This document shows, in pieces, positions 9,698-47,154 of a DNA stretch of 64,000 nt (position 1 is the stretch's first letter; each line of letters opens with the position of its first letter). Where the stretch lies: assembly GCA_902826515.1 (NCBI GenBank), contig CADEFD010000001.1, forward strand, positions 3,011-67,010, read 5' to 3'. The DNA comes from an uncultured Acidobacteriota bacterium (GTDB lineage Bacteria > Acidobacteriota > Vicinamibacteria > Vicinamibacterales > UBA2999). The notes beneath the pieces were generated by a model. The model did not search any database. It was not told the DNA's origin and saw nothing but the letters and a program-made list of their open reading frames with translations. A program made the position numbers and the translations under genes.

Positions 9698-10246
9698 ATG
9701 TCCGACCGCAAGACTCGAAGGATGTTGCGCCGCCTGCTGGTCGCCCTGCTCCTCGTGTCGTCCACACCAGCGAACGCAGACCCGGTCACGGCGTTCCCTC
9801 CCGGTGTGCGGCCGCTGCGGAGCTGGATCGCGGACATGATCGGCCGTGCGCGTCCGCTGTCACCAACACTCGACAGGCTCCTGACGGAGGTCGGGGCCCG
9901 GCCGCTCGTCGTCTACGTGGACGAGCTCAGCAGCCCGGACGTCCCTTACGACGGCCGGCTCAGCTTCATCGGCGCCTCGCACGGCTACCGCTTCCTGCGC
10001 ATCGAGCTTCGCCAGCTGCCCGCCGCGTCGGCGGCGGCCGTGCTCGCGCATGAACTCCAGCACGTGCGTGAAGTAGCAGGCGCCGCCGTGGCGTCCCGCC
10101 AGGACTTCGAAGCGCTGTATCGCCGGATCGGAGTGGACGCGACAGACAGCGGTGGCCGGCGTTACGACACGGCCGCCGCGGTCGCCTCTGGCGAGGCGGC
10201 GATGCGCGAGCTCACAAGTGCGGCGCGCGGGTCACACGACCGCTGA
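9698..10246 (+). CDS. Small secreted HExxH protein, paralog of 55896-56468
   Basis: ORF 9464..10246 trimmed to MSDRKTRRMLRRLLVALLLVSSTPANA. It contains VLAHELQHVREVAGAAVASRQDFEALYRRIG...YDTAAAVASGEAAMREL. This aligns by eye with VIAHELQHAREIADAAAVTQNQVRQLFERIG...YETAGAITAGMRVWREL in the gene at 55896-56468. Confidence 0.7.
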   Translation: MSDRKTRRMLRRLLVALLLVSSTPANADPVTAFPPGVRPLRSWIADMIGRARPLSPTLDRLLTEVGARPLVVYVDELSSPDVPYDGRLSFIGASHGYRFLRIELRQLPAASAAAVLAHELQHVREVAGAAVASRQDFEALYRRIGVDATDSGGRRYDTAAAVASGEAAMRELTSAARGSHDR

Positions 10247-38127: not shown

Positions 38128-39120
38128 ATGCGCCGACGTTCCTGGCTCACCGGACTCGTACTGCTGTGCACACTCGTGGGCGGGGCCTGGCCGGCAGCCC
38201 GGCAGTCTGCGGAGACGACGAACGGCACGTGGACCGCAGACGTCGAGACGTCCTGGCGCGGCGACGACGGCCGGCCCCGCGTGCAGCTCCAGCTGCGCAC
38301 GGAGGGCCGCGACAGCCACTGGGGCTTCGGCGTGCGCCCCGAGGACCTGCAGGGCCTGCCGCCCGGCGCCCGGGACGGGGCGGTGGCGAACGCGCGGTTC
38401 CACCTCGTGCGCGAGGCCGGCACCTTCACGTTCAGCGGCACGTTCGACGACGGGCGCGGCAGCGGGCCGTTCACCTTCGCGCCCGCCGCGGCGTACGTCC
38501 GTACGATGGAGGGCTTCGGGTACCGCAACCTTCCGGGCGAACGCCTCATGCGCCTGGCCGTGCTGGATGTGACGGGCGCCTTCGTCCGCGAGCTGCGCGA
38601 CGCCGGCCAGACGACGCTGCCGCTCGAGGACCTCGTGCGCTTCCGCATCCACGGCGTGTCTGGATCGCTCGTGCGCGCCTTCGCGCAGGCCGGACTGACG
38701 CCCCTCGCGCCCGGGGACCTCGTGCGGCTGCGCATCCACGGCGTGACGCCGGATTTCCTCACCGGACTACGCAGCCGCCGCTATACCGGCCTCGGTGCCG
38801 ACGACCTGACGCGCATGCGCATTCACGGCGTGACGCTCGAGGAGATCGACGCGCTGGGCGCAGCCGGCCTGCGGGGCGTCGCGGCGGACGAGCTGGTGCG
38901 CTTCCGCATCCACGGCGTCAGCCCGGCGTTCGTGCGCGACATGCGCGCGCTCGGCTTCACGACCGCCGATGCGGACGACTTCGTGCGGATGCGCATCCAC
39001 CGGGTCACGGCGTCACGCGTGCGCGACGCCCGCGCCGACGGGCTCGACATCGCCACCGCCGACGACGCCGTGGAGCTGGCCATCCACGGGCGGCGCTGGT
39101 CGCGCGGCCGGCGGCGCTGA
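38128..39120 (+). CDS. Secreted protein with 6-7 tandem 29-aa repeats (D-LVR-RIHGV type)
   Basis: Signal peptide MRRRSWLTGLVLLCTLVGGAWPAA. Repeats start at aa 139, 168, 197, 226, 255, 284 and 313 with an exact 29-aa spacing. Examples: DLVRFRIHGVSGSLVRAFAQAGLTPLAPG / DLVRLRIHGVTPDFLTGLRSRRYTGLGAD / DLTRMRIHGVTLEEIDALGAAGLRGVAAD. Confidence 0.8.
   Translation: MRRRSWLTGLVLLCTLVGGAWPAARQSAETTNGTWTADVETSWRGDDGRPRVQLQLRTEGRDSHWGFGVRPEDLQGLPPGARDGAVANARFHLVREAGTFTFSGTFDDGRGSGPFTFAPAAAYVRTMEGFGYRNLPGERLMRLAVLDVTGAFVRELRDAGQTTLPLEDLVRFRIHGVSGSLVRAFAQAGLTPLAPGDLVRLRIHGVTPDFLTGLRSRRYTGLGADDLTRMRIHGVTLEEIDALGAAGLRGVAADELVRFRIHGVSPAFVRDMRALGFTTADADDFVRMRIHRVTASRVRDARADGLDIATADDAVELAIHGRRWSRGRRR
38542..39093 (+). 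repeat. 87-nt (29-codon) tandem coding repeats inside 38128-39120
   Basis: CGCATCCACGGCGT(G/C) recurs near 38644, 38731, 38818 (CGCATTCACGGCGTG) and 38905, with a degenerate copy near 38992. Confidence 0.8.
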
Positions 39121-39130
39121 CGTCCCGGCG

Positions 39131-40825
39131 CTACGGGGCCGGCACGACGACGGCGGGAACGAAGCCTTCGGCACCCGGCTGCGCGCGCCAGCGCGCGGCA
39201 CTCGCGGCCGTCACGCAGACGTCCACGCCGTCGAGCACGCCGCAGGCGAGCGGCACTGACGTGGCGGCACCGAGCGCGGCGCGCATCGCCGGACTCAGCA
39301 CGTAGACGCTGTCATCGCTGACCGCGCCGGCGCGAAGGTCCGCTTCGAGCGCGGCGCAGTAGCGCAGCACGGCGCCGGTGTCGTAGCGGCCGGCGTTCCC
39401 CGAGTTGATCGTGACGCCGTGGGTGCCGGCCAGCAGCGAGAACGGCAGGTGCGGACCGGCCACCGGCGCCCACACGGCGGCGCACATATCGGGCGGCGCC
39501 ATCACGAGATGCCGGTAGGCGGGCACGATCGCCGTCCACGCGGCGCTCGTCACCGGCGAGTCGTAGTCGGTCCACGCGGGATTGTGCTCGCGCGCGTGCA
39601 GAGCGCGATAGGCGCCGCTCATGTCCACCGCCTGCACCACGAAGGCGAGGGCGAAGGCGGCCAGCGCGGCCGGACGCGGCAGACGCGTCACGAGCGCCAG
39701 CGCCACGAACGTGAACACCGTGTACATCGTGACCCAGCCGAAGCGGCCGCTCGACCGGAAGGTGGCGAGACTCGCCGGCGCCCAGTCGCGCAGATCGACG
39801 AGTGTCGTCGCCCCGAAGGTGACCACCGGGCTGATGGCGATGGCCGTGCATGCGGCCACGGCCAGCCAGCCTAGCCCCAGCCGCGGCATCGGTGCGCCGG
39901 CGCGCGGGCGCAGACGTACAACGAGTGCCGCCACCGTGAGCAGCAGCCAGCCCATCCCGAAGTAGACATGCCCCTCGTATTGGCCGGGCACCGCGAGCGG
40001 AAGCTCGGGCAGGAGCGTCGTGTAACCCATGCCCATGATCGGTCCGAGCAGGTTCATCGACAGCAGCCCCAGGCCGTCCGACTGCAGACTCTCGGAGCTG
40101 ATGAGGAAGTAGCCGCACAGCCAGAACACGCCGCCCATCACGAGTCCGGCTGCAGCACTGTCAGCGGCGAAGCCGGCCGCCGCGCGGCGCCACGTGGCGG
40201 CACGCCAGGCGCGGTTCGCGAAGGCGGCCAGCGCCAGCAGCAGCACCATGCCGGCCAGGTACGGCTGCACGGCGCCCACGATCGCCGCAAGCGCCAGCCA
40301 CGCGCCGCGATGCCACGGGCGCTGGGCGCGCGTGCCGTCGAGGAGCAGCCAGATCGACGCCAGCAGCACCCAGTGGGCGCAGAGCGCAGGGTGACCGAGG
40401 CGGTTGAAGAGGGCCGGCGTCTGCACGAAGAGCGCCGCGCCGAGCAGTTGCAGGCGCCAGTCGGGTGTGGCGAGGCGCAGCAGCAGCACGCCGAACACTC
40501 CCTGCAGGACGAAGCAGAGCAGCAGCCAGGCGCCCAGGTATTGCGACCGCTCTGGCAGCAGCGCCTGCAGCGGCTTCAGCGCGAAGGCCACGACCGGAAT
40601 CGCGTCCGTGTTCCCGATCGATGTGCCGACGGGATAACCGATGCCGTCGATGCGGCCGGGCGGCCAGCGCCACGGCTCGTGCCGGAAGTGCGTCCACGCC
40701 AGCACGTAGGTCTGGAGGTCGTGCCGCATCGTCCAGCCGAGATTCGACGGACGGACGATGGCCGTGCCGAGCACGGCCACGAACAGCGCGGCGCCGAGGA
40801 GGCCGCCGGCGAGCGCTGTTCTCAC
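39131..40825 (-). CDS. Large polytopic membrane protein (DUF6311-like / GT-C-like)
   Basis: ORF 39131..41209 trimmed to a GTG that overlaps the DinB stop (GTGA). It reads (M)RTALAGGLLGAALFVAVLGTAIV, then AWTHFRHEPWRWPPGRIDGIGYPVGTSIGNTDAIPVVAFALKPL, about 10 further hydrophobic spans and a soluble C-terminus. The family name is from memory only. Confidence 0.6.
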   Translation of the reverse strand: MRTALAGGLLGAALFVAVLGTAIVRPSNLGWTMRHDLQTYVLAWTHFRHEPWRWPPGRIDGIGYPVGTSIGNTDAIPVVAFALKPLQALLPERSQYLGAWLLLCFVLQGVFGVLLLRLATPDWRLQLLGAALFVQTPALFNRLGHPALCAHWVLLASIWLLLDGTRAQRPWHRGAWLALAAIVGAVQPYLAGMVLLLALAAFANRAWRAATWRRAAAGFAADSAAAGLVMGGVFWLCGYFLISSESLQSDGLGLLSMNLLGPIMGMGYTTLLPELPLAVPGQYEGHVYFGMGWLLLTVAALVVRLRPRAGAPMPRLGLGWLAVAACTAIAISPVVTFGATTLVDLRDWAPASLATFRSSGRFGWVTMYTVFTFVALALVTRLPRPAALAAFALAFVVQAVDMSGAYRALHAREHNPAWTDYDSPVTSAAWTAIVPAYRHLVMAPPDMCAAVWAPVAGPHLPFSLLAGTHGVTINSGNAGRYDTGAVLRYCAALEADLRAGAVSDDSVYVLSPAMRAALGAATSVPLACGVLDGVDVCVTAASAARWRAQPGAEGFVPAVVVPAP

Positions 40826-41340
40826 ACACCGTACCTGTCGCGCAGGATGCCTGCGTGATGCGCGAAGTGCCCGGCCACGAGCCACACGAGCGCGCGCGCG
40901 GTCACGCGCTGGCCGTTGGCCAGCGCCTCGCGGTCGAGGGCCGCCTCGTCGAGCGAGCGGATGAGCGCCAGCGATCCGAACCGCACCGCTTTCAGTTCGG
41001 CCACCACACTGGCGAGCGTGCGCGATTCGAAGCCGGCGGCAAGCTGCCAGGCGTTCTCGTCGAAGCCCGAGAGCGGCGTGGTGTCGGCGCGGGCGATGCG
41101 CAGCAGCCGGTAGGCGAAGACACGTTCGGTGTCGGCCATGTGGCCGACGACCTGCGTCACGCTCCACTTGCCGTCGGCGTAACGATGCGCGGCCTTCTCT
41201 TCCGGCCACGTGGTCATGTAGGCGAGCACGTCGCTCTGCCGCGCCAGCAGTTCGTGCGCGTCCTCGATGGGCACGGTGGCGTCGAGGTAGGGCTGGTAGA
41301 AGGGGGCGTAGTCGCCTGGTTGCGGACGGCCGATGGTCAT
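40822..41340 (-). CDS. DinB-family protein
   Basis: ORF 40822..41790 trimmed to MTIGRPQPGDYAPFYQPYLD (its ATG overlaps the ArsA stop, ATGA). VVGHMADTERVF and VAGHFAHHAGIL are His motifs of the DinB four-helix bundle. Confidence 0.85.
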   Translation of the reverse strand: MTIGRPQPGDYAPFYQPYLDATVPIEDAHELLARQSDVLAYMTTWPEEKAAHRYADGKWSVTQVVGHMADTERVFAYRLLRIARADTTPLSGFDENAWQLAAGFESRTLASVVAELKAVRFGSLALIRSLDEAALDREALANGQRVTARALVWLVAGHFAHHAGILRDRYGV

Positions 41341-42269
41341 GGGGTCACTCCTGTGGCGGCGGCGAGCGCGTCGGCCACCGGGCCGAGGCTCGCAAGGCCG
41401 TAGACGTCGCGGCGGAACTGCGGCAGATACACGCGCGGGCGGCTGGCAAAGCGCTTCGCGATCTCGTCGAGGTAGATCTGCTCCTGCTCGCGGCGGGCGG
41501 CGAGGAAGGCATCGGTGGTCTCGCGCGGCAGCACGCGGTTCACCACGAGCCCGCCCACCTTCACGCCGGTCTCGTCGAGCTGCGTGAGCGCGCGCGCCGT
41601 TTCTTCGATCGGCAGGCGTTCGGGGATGAGCACCAGCACGAATGCGCTCGTGCGGCCGCTCATGAGCCGGGCCCGCAGCCCCTGCAGCCGCTCGAAGCGA
41701 TCCTTCAGCGAGACGAGGATCGGATCCTCCTTGTCGTCGCCTTCCACGCCGAGCATGGCGCGGCGGGAGCGCGTGAGCGCGCGGATCCACGCGTCCATCA
41801 GCTCCGGCATCTTCACGAGACGCAGCGTGTGGCCGGTGGGCGCGGTGTCGAAGATGACCAGGTTGAAGCGCGTGTCTTCGCCGCGGATCAGGCCGCCCAT
41901 GCGGTCGAAGAGCGCCACTTCCTCGGCGCCCGGCATGCTGGCGGCGAGATCGATCTGCTTGTAGGCCTCTTTGAGGATCGAGTGCCCGAAGAGATCGCGC
42001 ACGCGGTCCTTCACCTCGCGCACGTAGCGGGCCGACTCGGTGGCGGCGTCGATCTCGAGGCCCCAGAGGTTCGGCAGGAGCTCGGTGGGATCGGCGCCGA
42101 TCGGCCGCTCGAAGATGTCGGAGGTCGAATGGGCCGGGTCGGTCGAGACGAGCAGCACCTTGCGGCCGGCGCGGCTGGCCGCCAGCGCCATCGCCGCGGC
42201 GCAGGTGGTCTTGCCCACCCCGCCCTTGCCGCCGAAGAAGAGCACCTCGCGGTCGAGCAGCCCCTGCAT
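41337..42269 (-). CDS. ArsA/Get3-family P-loop ATPase (single-domain, about 310 aa)
   Basis: Start set at MQGLLDREVLFFGGKGGVGKTTCAAAMALA. Motifs seen: VSTDPAHS and FDTAPTGHTLRL (the ArsA/Get3 signature DTAPTGHT). The ATG lies 2 nt after the upstream small-protein stop. Confidence 0.9.
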   Translation of the reverse strand: MQGLLDREVLFFGGKGGVGKTTCAAAMALAASRAGRKVLLVSTDPAHSTSDIFERPIGADPTELLPNLWGLEIDAATESARYVREVKDRVRDLFGHSILKEAYKQIDLAASMPGAEEVALFDRMGGLIRGEDTRFNLVIFDTAPTGHTLRLVKMPELMDAWIRALTRSRRAMLGVEGDDKEDPILVSLKDRFERLQGLRARLMSGRTSAFVLVLIPERLPIEETARALTQLDETGVKVGGLVVNRVLPRETTDAFLAARREQEQIYLDEIAKRFASRPRVYLPQFRRDVYGLASLGPVADALAAATGVTP

Positions 42270-42271
42270 CG

Positions 42272-42526
42272 TCAGCAGCACGGCAGACTGCCGACGGGCG
42301 ACCGGTCCATCCCCATGCGCCGGTGCCAGAGATGGAACTGATCGAGCAGATGCGGGTAGACCTCGAGCAGGTAGAACGCCGCCGGATTCGGCAGCCCCAC
42401 CACTTCCATGTAGCAGAGCAGCAGGAAGTAGTCGTTCAGCTCGGCGGCCTGCTGTTTGAGCTCACGCTCGTAGCGGCCGTAGGCCACGCCGTAGAGGATG
42501 TCGCGGAGATTCTGGGCGATGGACAT
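42272..42526 (-). CDS. 84-aa protein ending Cys-Cys-stop (possibly the family annotated as cory-CC-star protein)
   Basis: C-terminal part of ORF 42272..43780: MSIAQNLRDILYGVAYGRYERELKQQAAELNDYFLLLCYMEVVGLPNPAAFYLLEVYPHLLDQFHLWHRRMGMDRSPVGSLPCC. Its ATG lies 2 nt after the TMEM175-like stop. The family name is recalled from memory, not verified. Confidence 0.65.
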   Translation of the reverse strand: MSIAQNLRDILYGVAYGRYERELKQQAAELNDYFLLLCYMEVVGLPNPAAFYLLEVYPHLLDQFHLWHRRMGMDRSPVGSLPCC

Positions 42527-42528
42527 GG

Positions 42529-43107
42529 CTAGCCCTCGCGAAGCACACGTTCGATGCGGCGGTCGGGCACCAGCCAGACCAGGGCGACCACGGTGTAGAG
42601 CAGACCCGCGGCGAGCGGCACCCACGGCGCCACGGCGATGCCCACGACATAGACCATGGGCGACACGTTGCCCTTCCAGTCGCCGCCCATCGCCTTCTGC
42701 AGCAGCGAATCGGGCCCCTGCGCGCGCACGATGACCCGCTGCAGGATCCAGTAGGCGATCGCCGCCATCAGCAGCACCACGCCGTAGATCGCGGTGGGGA
42801 TCGGGGCGAAGTGGTTCTCGCCCATCCAGCCGGTCACGAAGGGTACGAGCGACAGCCAGAAGAGCAGATGCAGGTTGGCCCACAGGATGCCACCGGTGAC
42901 GTGCCGCACGGTGTGCAGCATGTGGTGGTGGTTGTTCCAGTAGATGCCCAGGTACACGAAGCTCAGCACGTAGCTCAGGAACACGCCCCAGAGCGGCCCG
43001 AGCGCCGCGAGGGTCGTGTCGTGCGGCACCTTCAGCTCGAGCACCATGATCGTGATGAGAATCGCGATCACGCCGTCGCTGAACGCCTCGAGCCGGCCTT
43101 TGCCCAT
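42529..43107 (-). CDS. TMEM175-family (DUF1211) potassium-channel-like membrane protein
   Basis: MGKGRLEAFSDGVIAILITIMVLELKVP (RxxxFSDGVxAIxxT signature), followed by 5 further TM spans. Confidence 0.85.
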   Translation of the reverse strand: MGKGRLEAFSDGVIAILITIMVLELKVPHDTTLAALGPLWGVFLSYVLSFVYLGIYWNNHHHMLHTVRHVTGGILWANLHLLFWLSLVPFVTGWMGENHFAPIPTAIYGVVLLMAAIAYWILQRVIVRAQGPDSLLQKAMGGDWKGNVSPMVYVVGIAVAPWVPLAAGLLYTVVALVWLVPDRRIERVLREG

Positions 43108-43138: not shown

Positions 43139-43158
43139 GGCGCGCCGCCGGGCGCGCC
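43139..43158 (-). terminator. GC hairpin between the cytochrome c gene and the TMEM175-like gene (possible terminator/attenuator)
   Basis: GGCGCGCC-GCCG-GGCGCGCC (8-bp stem). On the minus strand it is followed by CGCCGTTTCGCGG, which has only three T. Confidence 0.3.
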
Positions 43159-43209: not shown

Positions 43210-43674
43210 CTACTGCGTGCGCAGGAACGCGATGACGTCGGCGGCGTCTTCCGCGGTCATGCGGAAGCGCGGCATCGGCGCCCGCGCCTGGCCGCCGATG
43301 CGCTTGATGGCGCCTTCGGTGAGCAGCCGCAGCGCTTCGGCATCGGAGTATCCGGGGAGGCCCGCAATCCGGGGCACCTGCAGCGGCCAGTCGGCCGGCC
43401 ACGGCACCCTGATGGGCAGCGGGCCGCCATGCAGGCGCGTTTCCGGAATGATCACGCCAGCCTGATCGCGGGTGGAATGACACTCCCCGCACATCGCCAC
43501 GCGCTCCACCAGATACCGGCCGCGCGCGGCGTTGCCGCGCAGTTCCGCCGGGGCCGCCGGGGCCGCCGCAACGTCCTTCTGCTGGGCCGAGACACGCTCT
43601 GCCGCGAGCCATGCGCCGCTGGCCATCGCCACCGCGCACACCATGCCCGACACCCACCCACGCACACCTGTCAT
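43210..43674 (-). CDS. Monoheme c-type cytochrome, secreted
   Basis: CGECH heme-binding motif, a distal MPRF Met, an N-terminal hydrophobic signal and GGAGG upstream of the ATG. Confidence 0.85.
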   Translation of the reverse strand: MTGVRGWVSGMVCAVAMASGAWLAAERVSAQQKDVAAAPAAPAELRGNAARGRYLVERVAMCGECHSTRDQAGVIIPETRLHGGPLPIRVPWPADWPLQVPRIAGLPGYSDAEALRLLTEGAIKRIGGQARAPMPRFRMTAEDAADVIAFLRTQ

Positions 43675-43808: not shown

Positions 43809-46388
43809 TCAGGAATTGATCCAGTAGCTGAACTTCACGAGGAAGACGTTCCTCGACGGCGACCCGAAGAGACCGCCGAAGTCGCGGCCGAACCGGAAGT
43901 CGCCGCGATCGCCGTCGTCCTGACGGCCCTGCTGCCAGACCACGAACAGCGCCGACCCGGGCTTGTATTCCCAGCGCAGCACGTTGGTCGTGCGGAACGA
44001 GCGGTAGTTGAAGTCGGCGTCGTCGGTGTAGGCGTAAGGCTGGAAGCGGCCCGCGTAAGTCGCGGCGCGGCCGTTCGTGAGTTCGCGGAACCGTCCGTAG
44101 CGTCCGGCCGACACGAAGGGCTCGGCGTAGGCCTGGAACGACAGCGTGGGCGACACGGTGTAGTTGGCGCGCAGCGTCATCGCCACGGTGCGCTGCTCGA
44201 GGCGCCCGAAGACGTAGTGCGTGACGCCGGCGGCGTCGTCGACGTTCTCGACCCACTGCGCGTCGTCGTCGTTGCGGTTGAAGCGCACGCCGCCTTCGAG
44301 GCGCACGGCGCGGCTCGGCCGCCACGTCACCACCGGGTTGGCGTTCATGCGGAACGTGCCCTGTCCGTCGCGCTCGTAGTAGCCGTTGTAGCCGGGCGCG
44401 AACAGCCGCCGGTTGTCACCTTCGAGATAGTGCCAGAGGCTGACGTTGCGGTTGGCCGTCACGACCGGGCCGCCGCGCGTCGACCGGTCGCGCACGCCGG
44501 CGCCGTTGCCGTTCAATCCGAAGCCGGTGCGCCAGTTGTTCTGGAACGTCCAGTGCATGTTGATGTTGCCGCCGCCGAAGAGGCGGTCGCCGCCGAAGTT
44601 CCAGCCGGCCCACTGGTTGAAGTTCACCATGTACTGGCGCACGTACTTGCCGGGCGTCTGGTCGCGCCACTGGAACCAGTGGTTCATCGTGCGCTCGTCG
44701 GTGCGGCGCAGGAAGCCGAGGTCGTTCGAGTCGAAGCCGGGGCTCTTGTAGCCGTAGTTGGCGCTGAAGCGCACGCGTTCGCCGCCGATCTTCGACAGGC
44801 CGATGGCGCCGGCGTGCCCGCGAAGTGTCGTGGCCGTCTCGTCGAGCGTCAGGTAGTCGCTGTCGGGCCGCTGGAAGTTGTGCACGGCGTTGGTCTGCAG
44901 GCGTTCGATCGCCTCGGCGCTGCCGGCCACGCGGCTGCCGACCAGATAGCCGGTGATGCTGAAGCGGCGGCCGAGCCGCCAGTCGTAGTCGACGCCGCCG
45001 ACGACGCTGTTGTCGGCCAGGAACGTCGTGTCTTGCGTGCCCTGCCGGCCGGTGGTCGTCAGCATCACGCCGAGGTTCGAGTTGTTGGCGAACTCGCGGC
45101 GCGCCCGCAGCACGTTGAAGCTCGTGAGCGGCTCCACCGTCTGCAGGCGGCGCGTCAGGCCGTTCGCGATGGTCGCCCGCTCCTGCTGCGTGACGGCGCT
45201 GAGCGCGCCCACCGAAAACTGGCCGACGCGGCCGGTGAGCTTCGCGGCGCCGAGGATGGTGGCGGCCGTGGGCGCCTGGCTGTACTCGCCGTCGGCGTCA
45301 TCCACCGACCCCTGCGGCGCGCGGCCGATGCGGCGGGAATACAGCAGGCCCGTGCAGTCGCCGTCGTTGCAGTCCATGTTGAAGCGGAAGATGCCCGACC
45401 CCTCGACGAAGAAGGGCCGGCGTTCCGCGAAGAAGAGCTCGAAGGCGTCGAGGTTCACCGCCGCCGGATCCGCTTCCACCTGCCCGAAGTCGGGGTTGAG
45501 CGTGGCGGTCAGCGTGAGCGCGGGCGTGACGGCGTACTTGAGATCGACGCCGATGTTGGCGCCGGGGTCGGTGGCACGCGCGAGCGGATTCCCGGCCTCG
45601 GGCGAGGACCGCACCACTTCGCCCACGGTGTACGGCATGAACTCGAGGCGCTTCGGCGCGGTGGCGGCGGCCAGGCCGTTCACGGTGCCGAACTGCGACA
45701 CGAAGCCGTTGACGCTGCGGGCGATGAGCGGCCAGGTGGCGGTTTCGTTGGCGCGCGGCAGATCGCGGATGACGGCCACACCCACCGGCCCGCCGCCCCG
45801 GGCGAAGCGCAGTTGCGAGAACGGAATGCGGAACTCGGCGCGCCAGCCTTCGGGATCGCGCGTGACCTGCACGTCCCATACGGCGTCCCAGCTGTCGTCG
45901 CTCGCGCCGTCGTTGAAGTAGTAGCGGTCGGTCTTGACGCCGGCGGGATTGACGCCGAACTCGTAGGCCGTGCGGCGATCGTAGTAAGAGTCGATCGCCA
46001 CCTTGAGCCAGTCGGACGGCGAGCGTTCGTCGCGGCGCGTGAGCATGCCGGTGATGCGGGCGGGCTCGCGGTCGTAGGCGCGGACGGCGATGTAGATCGC
46101 CTCGTCGTCGTAGGCAAACCGCGCCTCGGTGCGTTCGGTGGGCGCGGCGCCTTCGGCGGGCTCGCGCTGCACGAATTCGCCGATGACGGGCGCCTGCGTC
46201 CACACGGGCTCGTCGAAGCGCCCGTCGATGAGGATCGGCGTGGCGGCGGACACGGCCTGCGCGTCCATCACGGCGCGCCGTTCACGGCCGGCCTCGCCCG
46301 GCGGCGCCGCCAGCGCCGTCGTGGGGCCGCCGCCCAGGCAGGCAGCCGCCACGAGCGTGACCACGATCCGGCGCCGGTTGCTACTCAT
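43809..46388 (-). CDS. Outer-membrane/secreted protein with a CBM9-like N-domain and a DUF5916-like barrel
   Basis: ORF 43809..46934 trimmed to MSSNRRRIVVTLVAAACLGGGPTTALA. ILIDGRFDEPVWTQAPVIGEFVQREPAEGAAPTERTEARFAYDDEAIYIAVRAYD is CBM9-like. The C-terminus is a long beta-rich region ending FLVKFSYWINS. Confidence 0.8.
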   Translation of the reverse strand: MSSNRRRIVVTLVAAACLGGGPTTALAAPPGEAGRERRAVMDAQAVSAATPILIDGRFDEPVWTQAPVIGEFVQREPAEGAAPTERTEARFAYDDEAIYIAVRAYDREPARITGMLTRRDERSPSDWLKVAIDSYYDRRTAYEFGVNPAGVKTDRYYFNDGASDDSWDAVWDVQVTRDPEGWRAEFRIPFSQLRFARGGGPVGVAVIRDLPRANETATWPLIARSVNGFVSQFGTVNGLAAATAPKRLEFMPYTVGEVVRSSPEAGNPLARATDPGANIGVDLKYAVTPALTLTATLNPDFGQVEADPAAVNLDAFELFFAERRPFFVEGSGIFRFNMDCNDGDCTGLLYSRRIGRAPQGSVDDADGEYSQAPTAATILGAAKLTGRVGQFSVGALSAVTQQERATIANGLTRRLQTVEPLTSFNVLRARREFANNSNLGVMLTTTGRQGTQDTTFLADNSVVGGVDYDWRLGRRFSITGYLVGSRVAGSAEAIERLQTNAVHNFQRPDSDYLTLDETATTLRGHAGAIGLSKIGGERVRFSANYGYKSPGFDSNDLGFLRRTDERTMNHWFQWRDQTPGKYVRQYMVNFNQWAGWNFGGDRLFGGGNINMHWTFQNNWRTGFGLNGNGAGVRDRSTRGGPVVTANRNVSLWHYLEGDNRRLFAPGYNGYYERDGQGTFRMNANPVVTWRPSRAVRLEGGVRFNRNDDDAQWVENVDDAAGVTHYVFGRLEQRTVAMTLRANYTVSPTLSFQAYAEPFVSAGRYGRFRELTNGRAATYAGRFQPYAYTDDADFNYRSFRTTNVLRWEYKPGSALFVVWQQGRQDDGDRGDFRFGRDFGGLFGSPSRNVFLVKFSYWINS

Positions 46389-46429
46389 GAGCGTAGGAGT
46401 AGACGAGCGTACGCCGGAGAAGGTTGGCC

Positions 46430-46458
46430 GTCCGGCTGGATATTCGATCCAGCCGGAC
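46430..46458 (-). terminator. Perfect 12-bp hairpin between the GNAT gene and the DUF5916-like gene
   Basis: GTCCGGCTGGAT-ATTCG-ATCCAGCCGGAC. There is no T run, so it could be a U-less terminator or a protein-binding palindrome. Confidence 0.35.
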
Positions 46459-46482
46459 CGTGCGCCGGGGGGAGCCCGGAAC

Positions 46483-47154
46483 TCAGTGCACGCGAGTGCC
46501 CGCGGCCGCGGGGGCCGACAGACGCTCACGCCAGTCGTCGCGCCAGAGGGTCCAGAGCGCCTGATCGTGCCAGGCGCCATGGCGTTCGAACGACCGCCGC
46601 AGCACGGCTTCACGCACCGCGCCGAGCTTGGCCAGCGCGCCATTGCCGCGCCCGTTGGCGACCGAAGCGCGCGCTTCGAGGCGGTGCAGGCCCATCTCGG
46701 TGAACGCGAAGTCCACGACGCGCTCGGCGCCGGCGAGGAAGATCCCGGTGCCCCAGTAGGCGGCGCCCAGGATGAAGCCCCACTCGGCCACACCCTCGCG
46801 GCCCTCGAGGCGGCGCACCTGGAAGATCCCGACCGCTGTCTGCTCCCCGTCGGGCACGACGGCGAAACAGGCGTAGCGTCCGGCGGCGCGTTCGCGCTGC
46901 GCCCAGACGATGAAGCGCTCGAAGCCGGTGACACTGGCCGGCGGCGGCGAGATGAAGCGGCTGACCTCGGCCGGCGTCAGGTGCTGCATGAGCGTCGGCG
47001 CATCGGCGGCGACGAGCTCGCGCAGGGTGAAGCCGAGACCGCGGACGACGGGCAATCCGTCGCGCCAGGTGGAGGGCGGCACGAGGCCGGACGCGGGACG
47101 CGTCGCGACCGCGGGGCCCCGGTGGGTGTTGGCGTGATGCGGCATCACTTCCAT
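46483..47154 (-). CDS. GNAT-family N-acetyltransferase (RimJ/RimL-like)
   Basis: FTLRELVAADAPTLMQHL...FAVVPDGEQTAVGIFQVRRLEGREGVAEWGFILGAAYWGTGIFLAGAERVVDFAFTEMGLHRLEARASVANGRGNGALAKLGA. GGAG lies 9 nt upstream of the ATG. Confidence 0.85.
   Translation of the reverse strand: MEVMPHHANTHRGPAVATRPASGLVPPSTWRDGLPVVRGLGFTLRELVAADAPTLMQHLTPAEVSRFISPPPASVTGFERFIVWAQRERAAGRYACFAVVPDGEQTAVGIFQVRRLEGREGVAEWGFILGAAYWGTGIFLAGAERVVDFAFTEMGLHRLEARASVANGRGNGALAKLGAVREAVLRRSFERHGAWHDQALWTLWRDDWRERLSAPAAAGTRVH

Follow-up and report, generated by a model that had tools for sequence, protein, structure and literature searches.

Described counterparts of the genes analysed here are found in Escherichia coli K-12, in which genes of the CstA transporter family are followed by genes for small proteins: btsT is followed by yjiX (PF04328) and then by yjiA, which encodes a P-loop GTPase, and cstA is followed by ybdD. 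YjiX ends in ...GGMRCC and YbdD in ...GGARCC, and their family, DUF466, has two nearly invariant histidines. Constitutive pyruvate uptake requires ybdD together with cstA (PMC5847655). Moreover, a preprint on selenoproteins describes small proteins ending in CC-COOH or CU-COOH and encoded beside transporters as a recurring, unexplained theme, a Campylobacter DUF466 protein ending in K-C-Sec-COOH (Sec, selenocysteine) being among the examples (bioRxiv 10.1101/2022.07.06.499078); a literature search on yjiX and yjiA yielded nothing useful. Here, we analysed a small Cys-Cys-terminated protein and the ATPase encoded next to it in a 64,000-nucleotide stretch of DNA of an uncultured Vicinamibacterales bacterium of the Acidobacteriota (contig CADEFD010000001.1, G+C content ~70%), hereafter called the window. 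As judged from gene order, the conserved unit is this small protein together with a dedicated single-domain ATPase of the ArsA/Get3 family, their genes lying a few nucleotides apart, and the commonest companion of the pair is a CstA transporter.

The mini-protein is encoded on the minus strand at 42272–42526 and has 84 residues, with the C-terminus ...SLPCC-stop. It scored 89.1 bits (E 1.3e-25) against the NCBIfam model NF041419, "cory-CC-star protein", for which the cutoff is 80, and all of its relatives carry a precomputed match to Pfam PF25952 (DUF7990). The preliminary description of this DNA, made from the sequence before any database search, was right that a real Cys-Cys-stop mini-protein is present, but it missed both the family and its usual CstA partner. 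The cory-CC-star family (hereafter CC-star) is curated but unpublished. It is a small family: an exhaustive profile search of 1.84 billion representative proteins yielded only 205 clusters at 50% identity, and nearly all full-length members end in Cys-Cys. Alignments revealed ten invariant residues (G44, P46, P48, P58, H65, W67, H68, G72, C83 and C84), and the conserved motifs comprise, besides the terminal CC, a turn of the form G-x-P-N-P and the sequence F-H-x-W-H-x-R-x-G; the window protein also has an internal cysteine, which lacks conservation. An AlphaFold2 model built from an alignment of 54 sequences predicts a helical hairpin (helices 3–43 and 48–70, mean predicted local distance difference test score 85) that carries the two cysteines on a flexible tail. 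The hydrophobic stretches of CC-star are 12–13 residues long, contain conserved acidic residues and are too short for a transmembrane helix. No relative was found in the PDB, either by sequence or by Foldseek.

Family members vary in the codon that follows the two cysteines (TGA, TAG or TAA), indicating that it is a true stop. A selenocysteine reading of the TGA was rejected, since relatives use TAG or TAA and every member ends in CC. It should be noted that many NCBI and UniRef entries name DUF7990 proteins of 85–100 residues "DNA helicase", evidently a propagated mis-annotation.

The partner ATPase (41337–42269, minus strand) has 310 residues and one domain, with no tandem duplication. It scored 267.9 bits against TIGR00345 (GET3/ArsA/TRC40; cutoff 135) and matched PF02374 at 1.7e-77, and it carries the deviant Walker A motif GKGGVGKT and the switch motifs DPAHS and DTAPTGHT. 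Its best PDB relatives are 5zme, 3zq6, 1f48 (1.5e-50) and 3ug6, which represent Chlamydomonas ArsA1, archaeal Get3 and E. coli ArsA. Against the model of true ArsA, TIGR04291, it reached 150 bits, the cutoff being 650. Its sole cysteine lies beside the P-loop and is not conserved among the partner ATPases, no CxxC occurs in the sequence, and the region corresponding to the "TRC40-insert" is a short, charged stretch (GVEGDDKEDP) in the window ATPase, the other partner ATPases having a longer, polar one. The single domain, the sub-cutoff ArsA score, the lone non-conserved cysteine and the missing CxxC indicate that the protein is not an ArsA proper and not a Get3 of the canonical kind; the possibility, raised in the preliminary description, that it belongs with the arsenite-pump ArsA proteins is thus not borne out. 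In its sequence, it is similar to "Group 9" of a published survey, a set of single-domain homologues from bacteria that are uncharacterised; the survey catalogued single-domain bacterial Get3 homologues with no assigned role, and found bacterial Get3 homologues to be uncorrelated with the load of tail-anchored proteins (PMC6593721).

The genomic setting of the pair was compared in three samples. A scan of one genome per species returned 270 relatives, and the best 80 of these 270 loci were compared, using tblastn with the window proteins; these related loci come from metagenome-assembled genomes (MAGs) of Vicinamibacterales-type Acidobacteriota. A further 80 loci from metagenomes were collected by a scan seeded with CC-star proteins of the proteobacterial and actinobacterial type; 56 of them had enough flank to evaluate an upstream CstA gene and 67 to evaluate a downstream ATPase gene. 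Finally, 11 other contexts were inspected one by one. Single loci of all three samples are cited by L numbers.

The ATPase gene lies directly downstream of CC-star in 65 of the 67 evaluable metagenome loci, in ~75 of the 80 related loci and in all 11 inspected contexts, in agreement with the coupling of these two genes that had been proposed earlier. A short CstA gene lies directly upstream of CC-star in every evaluable metagenome locus (56/56). The cassette behind a short (~555-residue) CstA occurs in Pseudomonadota, Campylobacterota, Actinomycetota and marine metagenomes, and the order CstA (550–569 residues), DUF7990, ArsA-like ATPase was found in Pseudidiomarina, Pseudomonas (CP048629), Halomonas (CP199423), Campylobacter pinnipediorum (CP012547), Mycolicibacterium hippocampi and two further genomes. 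Three other arrangements were seen: CstA on both sides of the pair (L094), a major facilitator superfamily transporter downstream of it (L095) and, in Thermocrinis ruber (L088, CP007028), only a cytochrome c gene upstream. DUF466 and YjiA genes were found in none of the 80 metagenome loci; genes for DinB, TMEM175 and DUF6311, which surround the pair in the window, were found in none of these 80 loci and in none of the 11 other contexts.

The C-terminal tails differ along the same lines. All 80 proteins of the metagenome loci end in Cys-Cys, and the tails of CstA-linked CC-star proteins are nearly always F-R/K-C-C (78 of the 80 metagenome proteins), whereas the residue before the two cysteines varies (P, S, G or R) in the CstA-less proteins of the Vicinamibacterales. 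This hints that a basic residue matters for the partnership with CstA. In ~13 of the 80 metagenome loci, the pair is flanked by two CstA genes, the one immediately behind the ATPase gene being a divergent paralogue with ~40% identity to the first (L094, L110, L133, L135, L138, L142, L151, L160–L162, L167 and L170 among them).

Within the Vicinamibacterales, the order and strand of the CC-star, ATPase and DinB genes are kept in roughly 66–75 of the 80 related loci, with a median gap of ~2 nt between the first two. The DinB gene directly follows the ATPase gene in ~66 of the 80, an ATGA overlap being present at 31 of these 66 junctions. In the window, it encodes a DinB_2/YfiT-like protein of 172 residues (40822–41340, minus strand; PF12867, 2.6e-21). 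This protein is closest to Bacillus subtilis YfiT, and its alignment with the YfiT structure 1rxq (1e-5) places the histidines of GHMAD and GHFAHH against those of HHLAD and WHSHHH, so that the YfiT-type metal-binding motifs are kept; against the bacillithiol transferase model NF009807 it scored 39 bits, with a cutoff of 160. The preliminary description had counted DinB as a member of the unit, which holds within this order, where it is the conserved third gene, but not in the metagenome loci and other contexts.

The other two genes of the window behave differently. The TMEM175 gene (42529–43107, minus strand) encodes a predicted channel of the bacterial TMEM175 family with 192 residues (PF06736, 110.9 bits, 4e-32; 1.6e-15 against the solved bacterial channel PDB 5vre). 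A TMEM175 gene lies within 1 kb upstream of CC-star in only 7 of the 80 related loci, adjoining it in L001–L003, L010 and L011 and standing ~0.9 kb away in L008 and L013. Five loci devoid of TMEM175 (L004, L005, L007, L009 and L012) have CC-star proteins 94–99% identical to that of the window (98% in L004, L005 and L007, 96% in L009, 94% in L012). Moreover, in L005 (JAGNJW010000008.1), ~100 nt upstream of locus position 10001, TMEM175 is reduced to an in-frame relic of 32 codons, made of its first 16 and last 16 codons (MGKGRLEAFSDGVVAV joined to MWLVPDRRIERALSKS-stop) by a clean internal deletion; the relic ends 2 nt before the ATG of a CC-star gene whose product is 98% identical to that of the window. 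The patchy presence of TMEM175, together with this relic, indicates that it is not required. The gene for the polytopic membrane protein DUF6311 (39131–40825, minus strand; 564 residues; PF19830, 4e-41) adjoins the unit in 7 of the 80 related loci (L001–L005, L007 and L012), stands 6–8 kb off in L014, L018 and L019 and is absent from the others; L009 has neither TMEM175 nor DUF6311. No PDB relative of the DUF6311 protein was found. A PMT-type glycosyltransferase gene nearby suggests envelope glycosylation and not a link to the pair, and DUF6311 is probably a lineage-specific, envelope-related downstream neighbour.

The full five-gene order was also found in L001–L003, and the five-gene composition is confined to the window and its three or so closest genomes. 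When the conservation of the neighbourhood was examined, as the preliminary description had advised, only the series mini-protein, ATPase, DinB proved conserved among the 80 relatives, and the five-gene stoichiometric unit proposed there did not hold. TMEM175 and DUF6311 are recent, dispensable operon neighbours found in the immediate clade of the window only, and the operon is best read as a conserved three-gene core with two accidental neighbours and not as a new five-component system.

The reading that we favour, with a probability of roughly 0.45, is that CC-star is a transporter-associated accessory protein handled by its dedicated ATPase, a system that here would have parted from CstA and taken on a DinB protein of the YfiT type. 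In this view, CC-star would serve a membrane transport protein as an accessory or regulatory subunit, working through its thiols or through a His2Cys2 metal site. The amphipathic CC-star hairpin would be bound by the dimeric ATPase, which would spend ATP on loading, docking or recycling it at the membrane. In the module of the Vicinamibacterales, CstA would have been lost and DinB gained; DinB would be a metal-dependent thiol transferase and may act on the Cys-Cys tail. The position of TMEM175 in the window, in the slot that CstA occupies elsewhere, is suggestive; TMEM175 may or may not be a local client.

Several points weigh against this proposal. No CstA gene lies within reach of the pair in the window or in its 80 relatives. 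Most Vicinamibacterales loci, like that of Thermocrinis, have no transporter adjoining the pair, indicating that it can function without one. The CC-star tail of the window clade is LPCC and not F-R/K-CC. Homology between CC-star and DUF466 was given a probability of 3.6–10% by hhalign, over 9–13 C-terminal columns only, and given that none is detectable, CC-star is taken to be analogous to YbdD/YjiX in position and motif and not to belong to their family. Since the ATPase has no conserved cysteine and its insert is short and charged, neither a metalloid site nor a client groove of the Get3 type is evident. Finally, a literature search on "cory-CC-star" and "DUF7990" found no paper, and no experiment is known for any DUF7990 protein or its partner ATPase.

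Among the competing explanations, a soft-metal or metalloid chaperone pair comparable to ArsD and ArsA stands best, although we consider it unlikely. ArsD feeds ArsA through vicinal cysteine pairs; by analogy, CC-star, with its vicinal cysteines and H65/H68, would trade metal or metalloid with the ATPase, and the adjoining transporter would be irrelevant. Such a pair would agree with the membership of the ATPase in the ArsA/Get3 family, with the invariant CC tail and the two invariant histidines, and with a DinB partner of a metal-dependent thiol enzyme type. E. coli YjiA, whose gene has the corresponding place, also counts in its favour: its annotation is that of a P-loop GTPase, and it is a metal-binding GTPase of COG0523. 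However, the features that set the ATPase apart from true ArsA speak against it, no arsB-, acr3- or arsD-type gene occurs among the Pfam-annotated neighbours in any inspected locus, and the near-universal linkage to CstA elsewhere would be left unexplained.

A bacterial targeting system of the Get3 type, in which the ATPase captures hydrophobic segments of membrane proteins, or the CC-star hairpin itself, and delivers them to the membrane, with CC-star as co-chaperone or receptor and the membrane neighbours as substrates, appears rather improbable. The TIGR00345 membership of the ATPase, the targeting factors among its PDB relatives (Chlamydomonas ArsA1 and archaeal Get3), the amphipathic helical hairpin with hydrophobic stretches modelled for CC-star, the membrane protein adjoining the pair in most contexts and the published catalogue of single-domain homologues without assigned role are all compatible with it. 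On the other hand, the insert is neither Met-rich nor hydrophobic in the partner ATPases, CstA, TMEM175 and DUF6311 are polytopic and not tail-anchored, the hydrophobic stretches of CC-star, with their conserved acidic residues, fall short of a transmembrane span, and the survey cited above saw no relation to tail-anchored protein load in bacteria.

A wider claim, which we regard as comparably doubtful, is that the window exemplifies a general, undescribed arrangement in which a transporter gene is followed by a gene for a micro-protein (hydrophobic-R/K-Cys-Cys-COOH, with two conserved histidines) and then by one for a nucleoside triphosphatase (NTPase) of the SIMIBI class, the window module having been re-targeted from CstA to TMEM175 and DinB having been added. 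If so, the unrelated DUF466 and DUF7990 proteins would be loaded or cycled by unrelated NTPases, a YjiA-type GTPase and an ArsA-like ATPase, respectively, and this loading or cycling would assemble or gate the transporter.

Still less probable, in our view, is that the trio of the Vicinamibacterales forms a cytoplasmic relay for thiol redox or for conjugation of low-molecular-weight thiols, in which DinB moves a thiol cofactor to or from the CC tail, the ATPase carries out ATP-driven recycling and membrane transport is uninvolved. The trio, with overlapping stop and start codons, is found in ~66 of the 80 genomes of the order, DinB retains the YfiT-type histidines, and most of these genomes have no adjoining transporter. 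However, the DinB score is far below the YfiT equivalog cutoff, and no cassette outside the Vicinamibacterales includes a DinB gene, so that DinB cannot define the basic function of the pair. As for the model of five interdependent proteins forming one stoichiometric module for membrane-protein insertion/maturation or for thiol/metalloid stress, which was the preliminary description's own, the four consecutive tight junctions, uncommon elsewhere in the window, and the identical order in three relatives are outweighed by the near-identical CC-star genomes without TMEM175, the relic in L005 and the absence of TMEM175, DinB and DUF6311 from the metagenome loci and other contexts, and these neighbourhood data largely refute it, leaving it very improbable.

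The boundaries of the five open reading frames were read directly from the minus-strand sequence and from the list of reading frames, and the short spacers and overlaps given in the preliminary description were confirmed. The TMEM175 gene runs from its ATG at 43107 to a TAG stop at 42531–42529, which is separated by "cc" from the ATG of the 84-residue gene at 42526. The latter ends in TGC TGC TGA, with its stop at 42274–42272, followed by "cg" and the ATG of the ATPase gene at 42269; an alternative GTG start of the ATPase at 42281 would replace this gap by an overlap of 10 nt. The ATPase and DinB genes overlap as ATGA (41340–41337), and the DinB and DUF6311 genes as GTGA (40825–40822), the 564 residues of the membrane protein being counted from that GTG. 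The identities first given to these genes (TMEM175, ArsA/Get3-like, DinB and membrane protein) agree with the family scans. Tight junctions are uncommon elsewhere: of 19 other same-strand pairs of the window, only ~3 have a possible start codon no more than 12 nt from the stop of the gene before it, a figure that is only indicative, as it comes from a crude gene caller that misses small genes. Given four consecutive tight junctions, unusual for the window, the five genes are plausibly co-transcribed here as one transcript.

In relatives that have no tightly abutting TMEM175, a TAGCAT or TACTAT element followed by GG was seen 7–10 nt upstream of the CC-star ATG. It is conserved in L004, L007, L009 and L010, at locus positions ~9985–10000 (9357–9372 in L007), and could be a -10 box of a near-leaderless CC-star transcript.

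Upstream of TMEM175, a GC hairpin at 43139–43158 on the minus strand (GGCGCGCC-CGGC-GGCGCGCC) has a perfect 8-bp stem and a 4-nt loop. It had been described as separating the unit from the cytochrome c gene beyond it. The hairpin is present as described, but its role as a separator finds no backing: it has no U-tract, a terminator scan called nothing on the minus strand, and the GGCGCGCC arm was not found upstream in nine close relatives. Perfect 8-bp hairpins number 37 in the window, compared with ~26 (range 12–37) in Markov-1 simulations. The hairpin was rejected as a unit boundary, being unremarkable in GC-rich DNA and not conserved in relatives, and is probably no functional boundary as far as its sequence and conservation tell. 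A search of the whole window against Rfam returned no RNA family.

The gene beyond the hairpin encodes a cytochrome c of 154 residues (43210–43674, minus strand; PF00034, 1e-4), a syntenic neighbour, and cytochrome c also lies directly upstream of CC-star in five loci devoid of TMEM175 (L004, L005, L009, L012 and L016). The usual upstream neighbour on the same strand is a gene for a CBM9/DUF5916 protein (45 of the 80 related loci), sometimes with cytochrome c in between; in the window, this CBM9-like and DUF5916 protein is encoded at 43809–46934 on the minus strand (PF19313, 6e-79), these being the coordinates of the maximal open reading frame, the true start of which is probably internal. The cytochrome c gene of Thermocrinis (5726–6255 in L088) overlaps the CC-star gene. 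Cytochrome c was considered as a partner shared by Thermocrinis and the window clade, two very distant lineages, and this was rejected: the two cytochromes have no significant similarity, and the upstream cytochrome c is therefore treated as coincidence.

Downstream, a convergent acylase-like gene follows DinB, in place of DUF6311, in 35 of the 80 related loci. In the window, a plus-strand gene (38128–39120) converges on the DUF6311 gene with a spacer of 10 nt; its product has 330 residues, gives no Pfam match and contains four or more repeats of 29 residues that follow the pattern ...DLVRxRIHGV(S/T).... Homologues of this repeat protein are encoded downstream in 11 related loci, at varying distance. 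Some of the related loci share synteny with the Vicinamibacterales in their genes but carry record titles at odds with this content: L018, L053, L057, L066 and L079 (Bifidobacteriaceae), L068 (Bathyarchaeota), L073 (cyanobacterium) and L052 and L059 (Acidimicrobiia). Mis-binning or mislabelling of these MAG contigs is the likely cause.

Conservation of the CC-star/ArsA-like pair extends over at least five phyla, and there are curated models for it, but no paper, structure or phenotype. Each of the gene families has been catalogued; the literature does not describe the cassette of CstA, CC-star and ArsA-like ATPase, its analogy with YbdD/YjiX and its CstA-less, DinB-bearing variant. The link to CstA, together with the E. 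coli YbdD precedent, provides a hypothesis that is testable in tractable Pseudomonas, Halomonas and Mycolicibacterium, and through the pair, one class of bacterial Get3/ArsA homologues with a single domain may gain its first physiological role.

In relation to known systems, the window locus agrees with the cory-CC-star cassette itself, with which it shares an above-cutoff score, the GxPNP turn, the FHxWH motif, the terminal CC and an adjoining ATPase; it differs by the missing CstA, the L-P-C-C tail, the appended DinB and TMEM175 in the place of CstA. With ArsA and ArsD it shares the ATPase superfamily (PF02374; 1f48) and a small partner with vicinal cysteines. However, the window ATPase is single-domain and has no metalloid-binding cysteines, no arsB, acr3 or arsD was found in the inspected loci, and CC-star, unlike ArsD, is predicted as an all-helical hairpin with no PDB relative. 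The likeness to Get3/TRC40 lies in TIGR00345, in the Walker A and switch motifs and in a length and single-domain layout like those of 3zq6 and 3ug6, whereas the CxxC zinc motif is missing, the insert is short and charged and no receptor of the Get1/2 type is known; a dedicated CC-COOH partner is a feature of the window ATPase and not of Get3 systems.

The analogy with YbdD and YjiX is one of gene position and C-terminal motif. CC-star was also considered as a DUF466 homologue, which was rejected, the profile-profile alignment covering only the last nine residues; nor did Pfam PF04328 match the window mini-protein. What they have in common is a small (65–100 residues) helical protein with two conserved histidines and a hydrophobic-R/K-C-C-COOH tail, encoded behind a gene of the CstA family; moreover, yjiX, like CC-star elsewhere, directly precedes a P-loop NTPase gene. 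They differ in that YjiX is modelled, at low confidence, as three short helices and a tail and CC-star as one long hairpin, and in that the NTPase next to YjiX is a GTPase annotated YjiA and not an ArsA/Get3 ATPase. In the window itself there is no CstA and the tail is PCC, whereas both CstA and the R/K-C-C ending are present with the CC-star proteins of other phyla.

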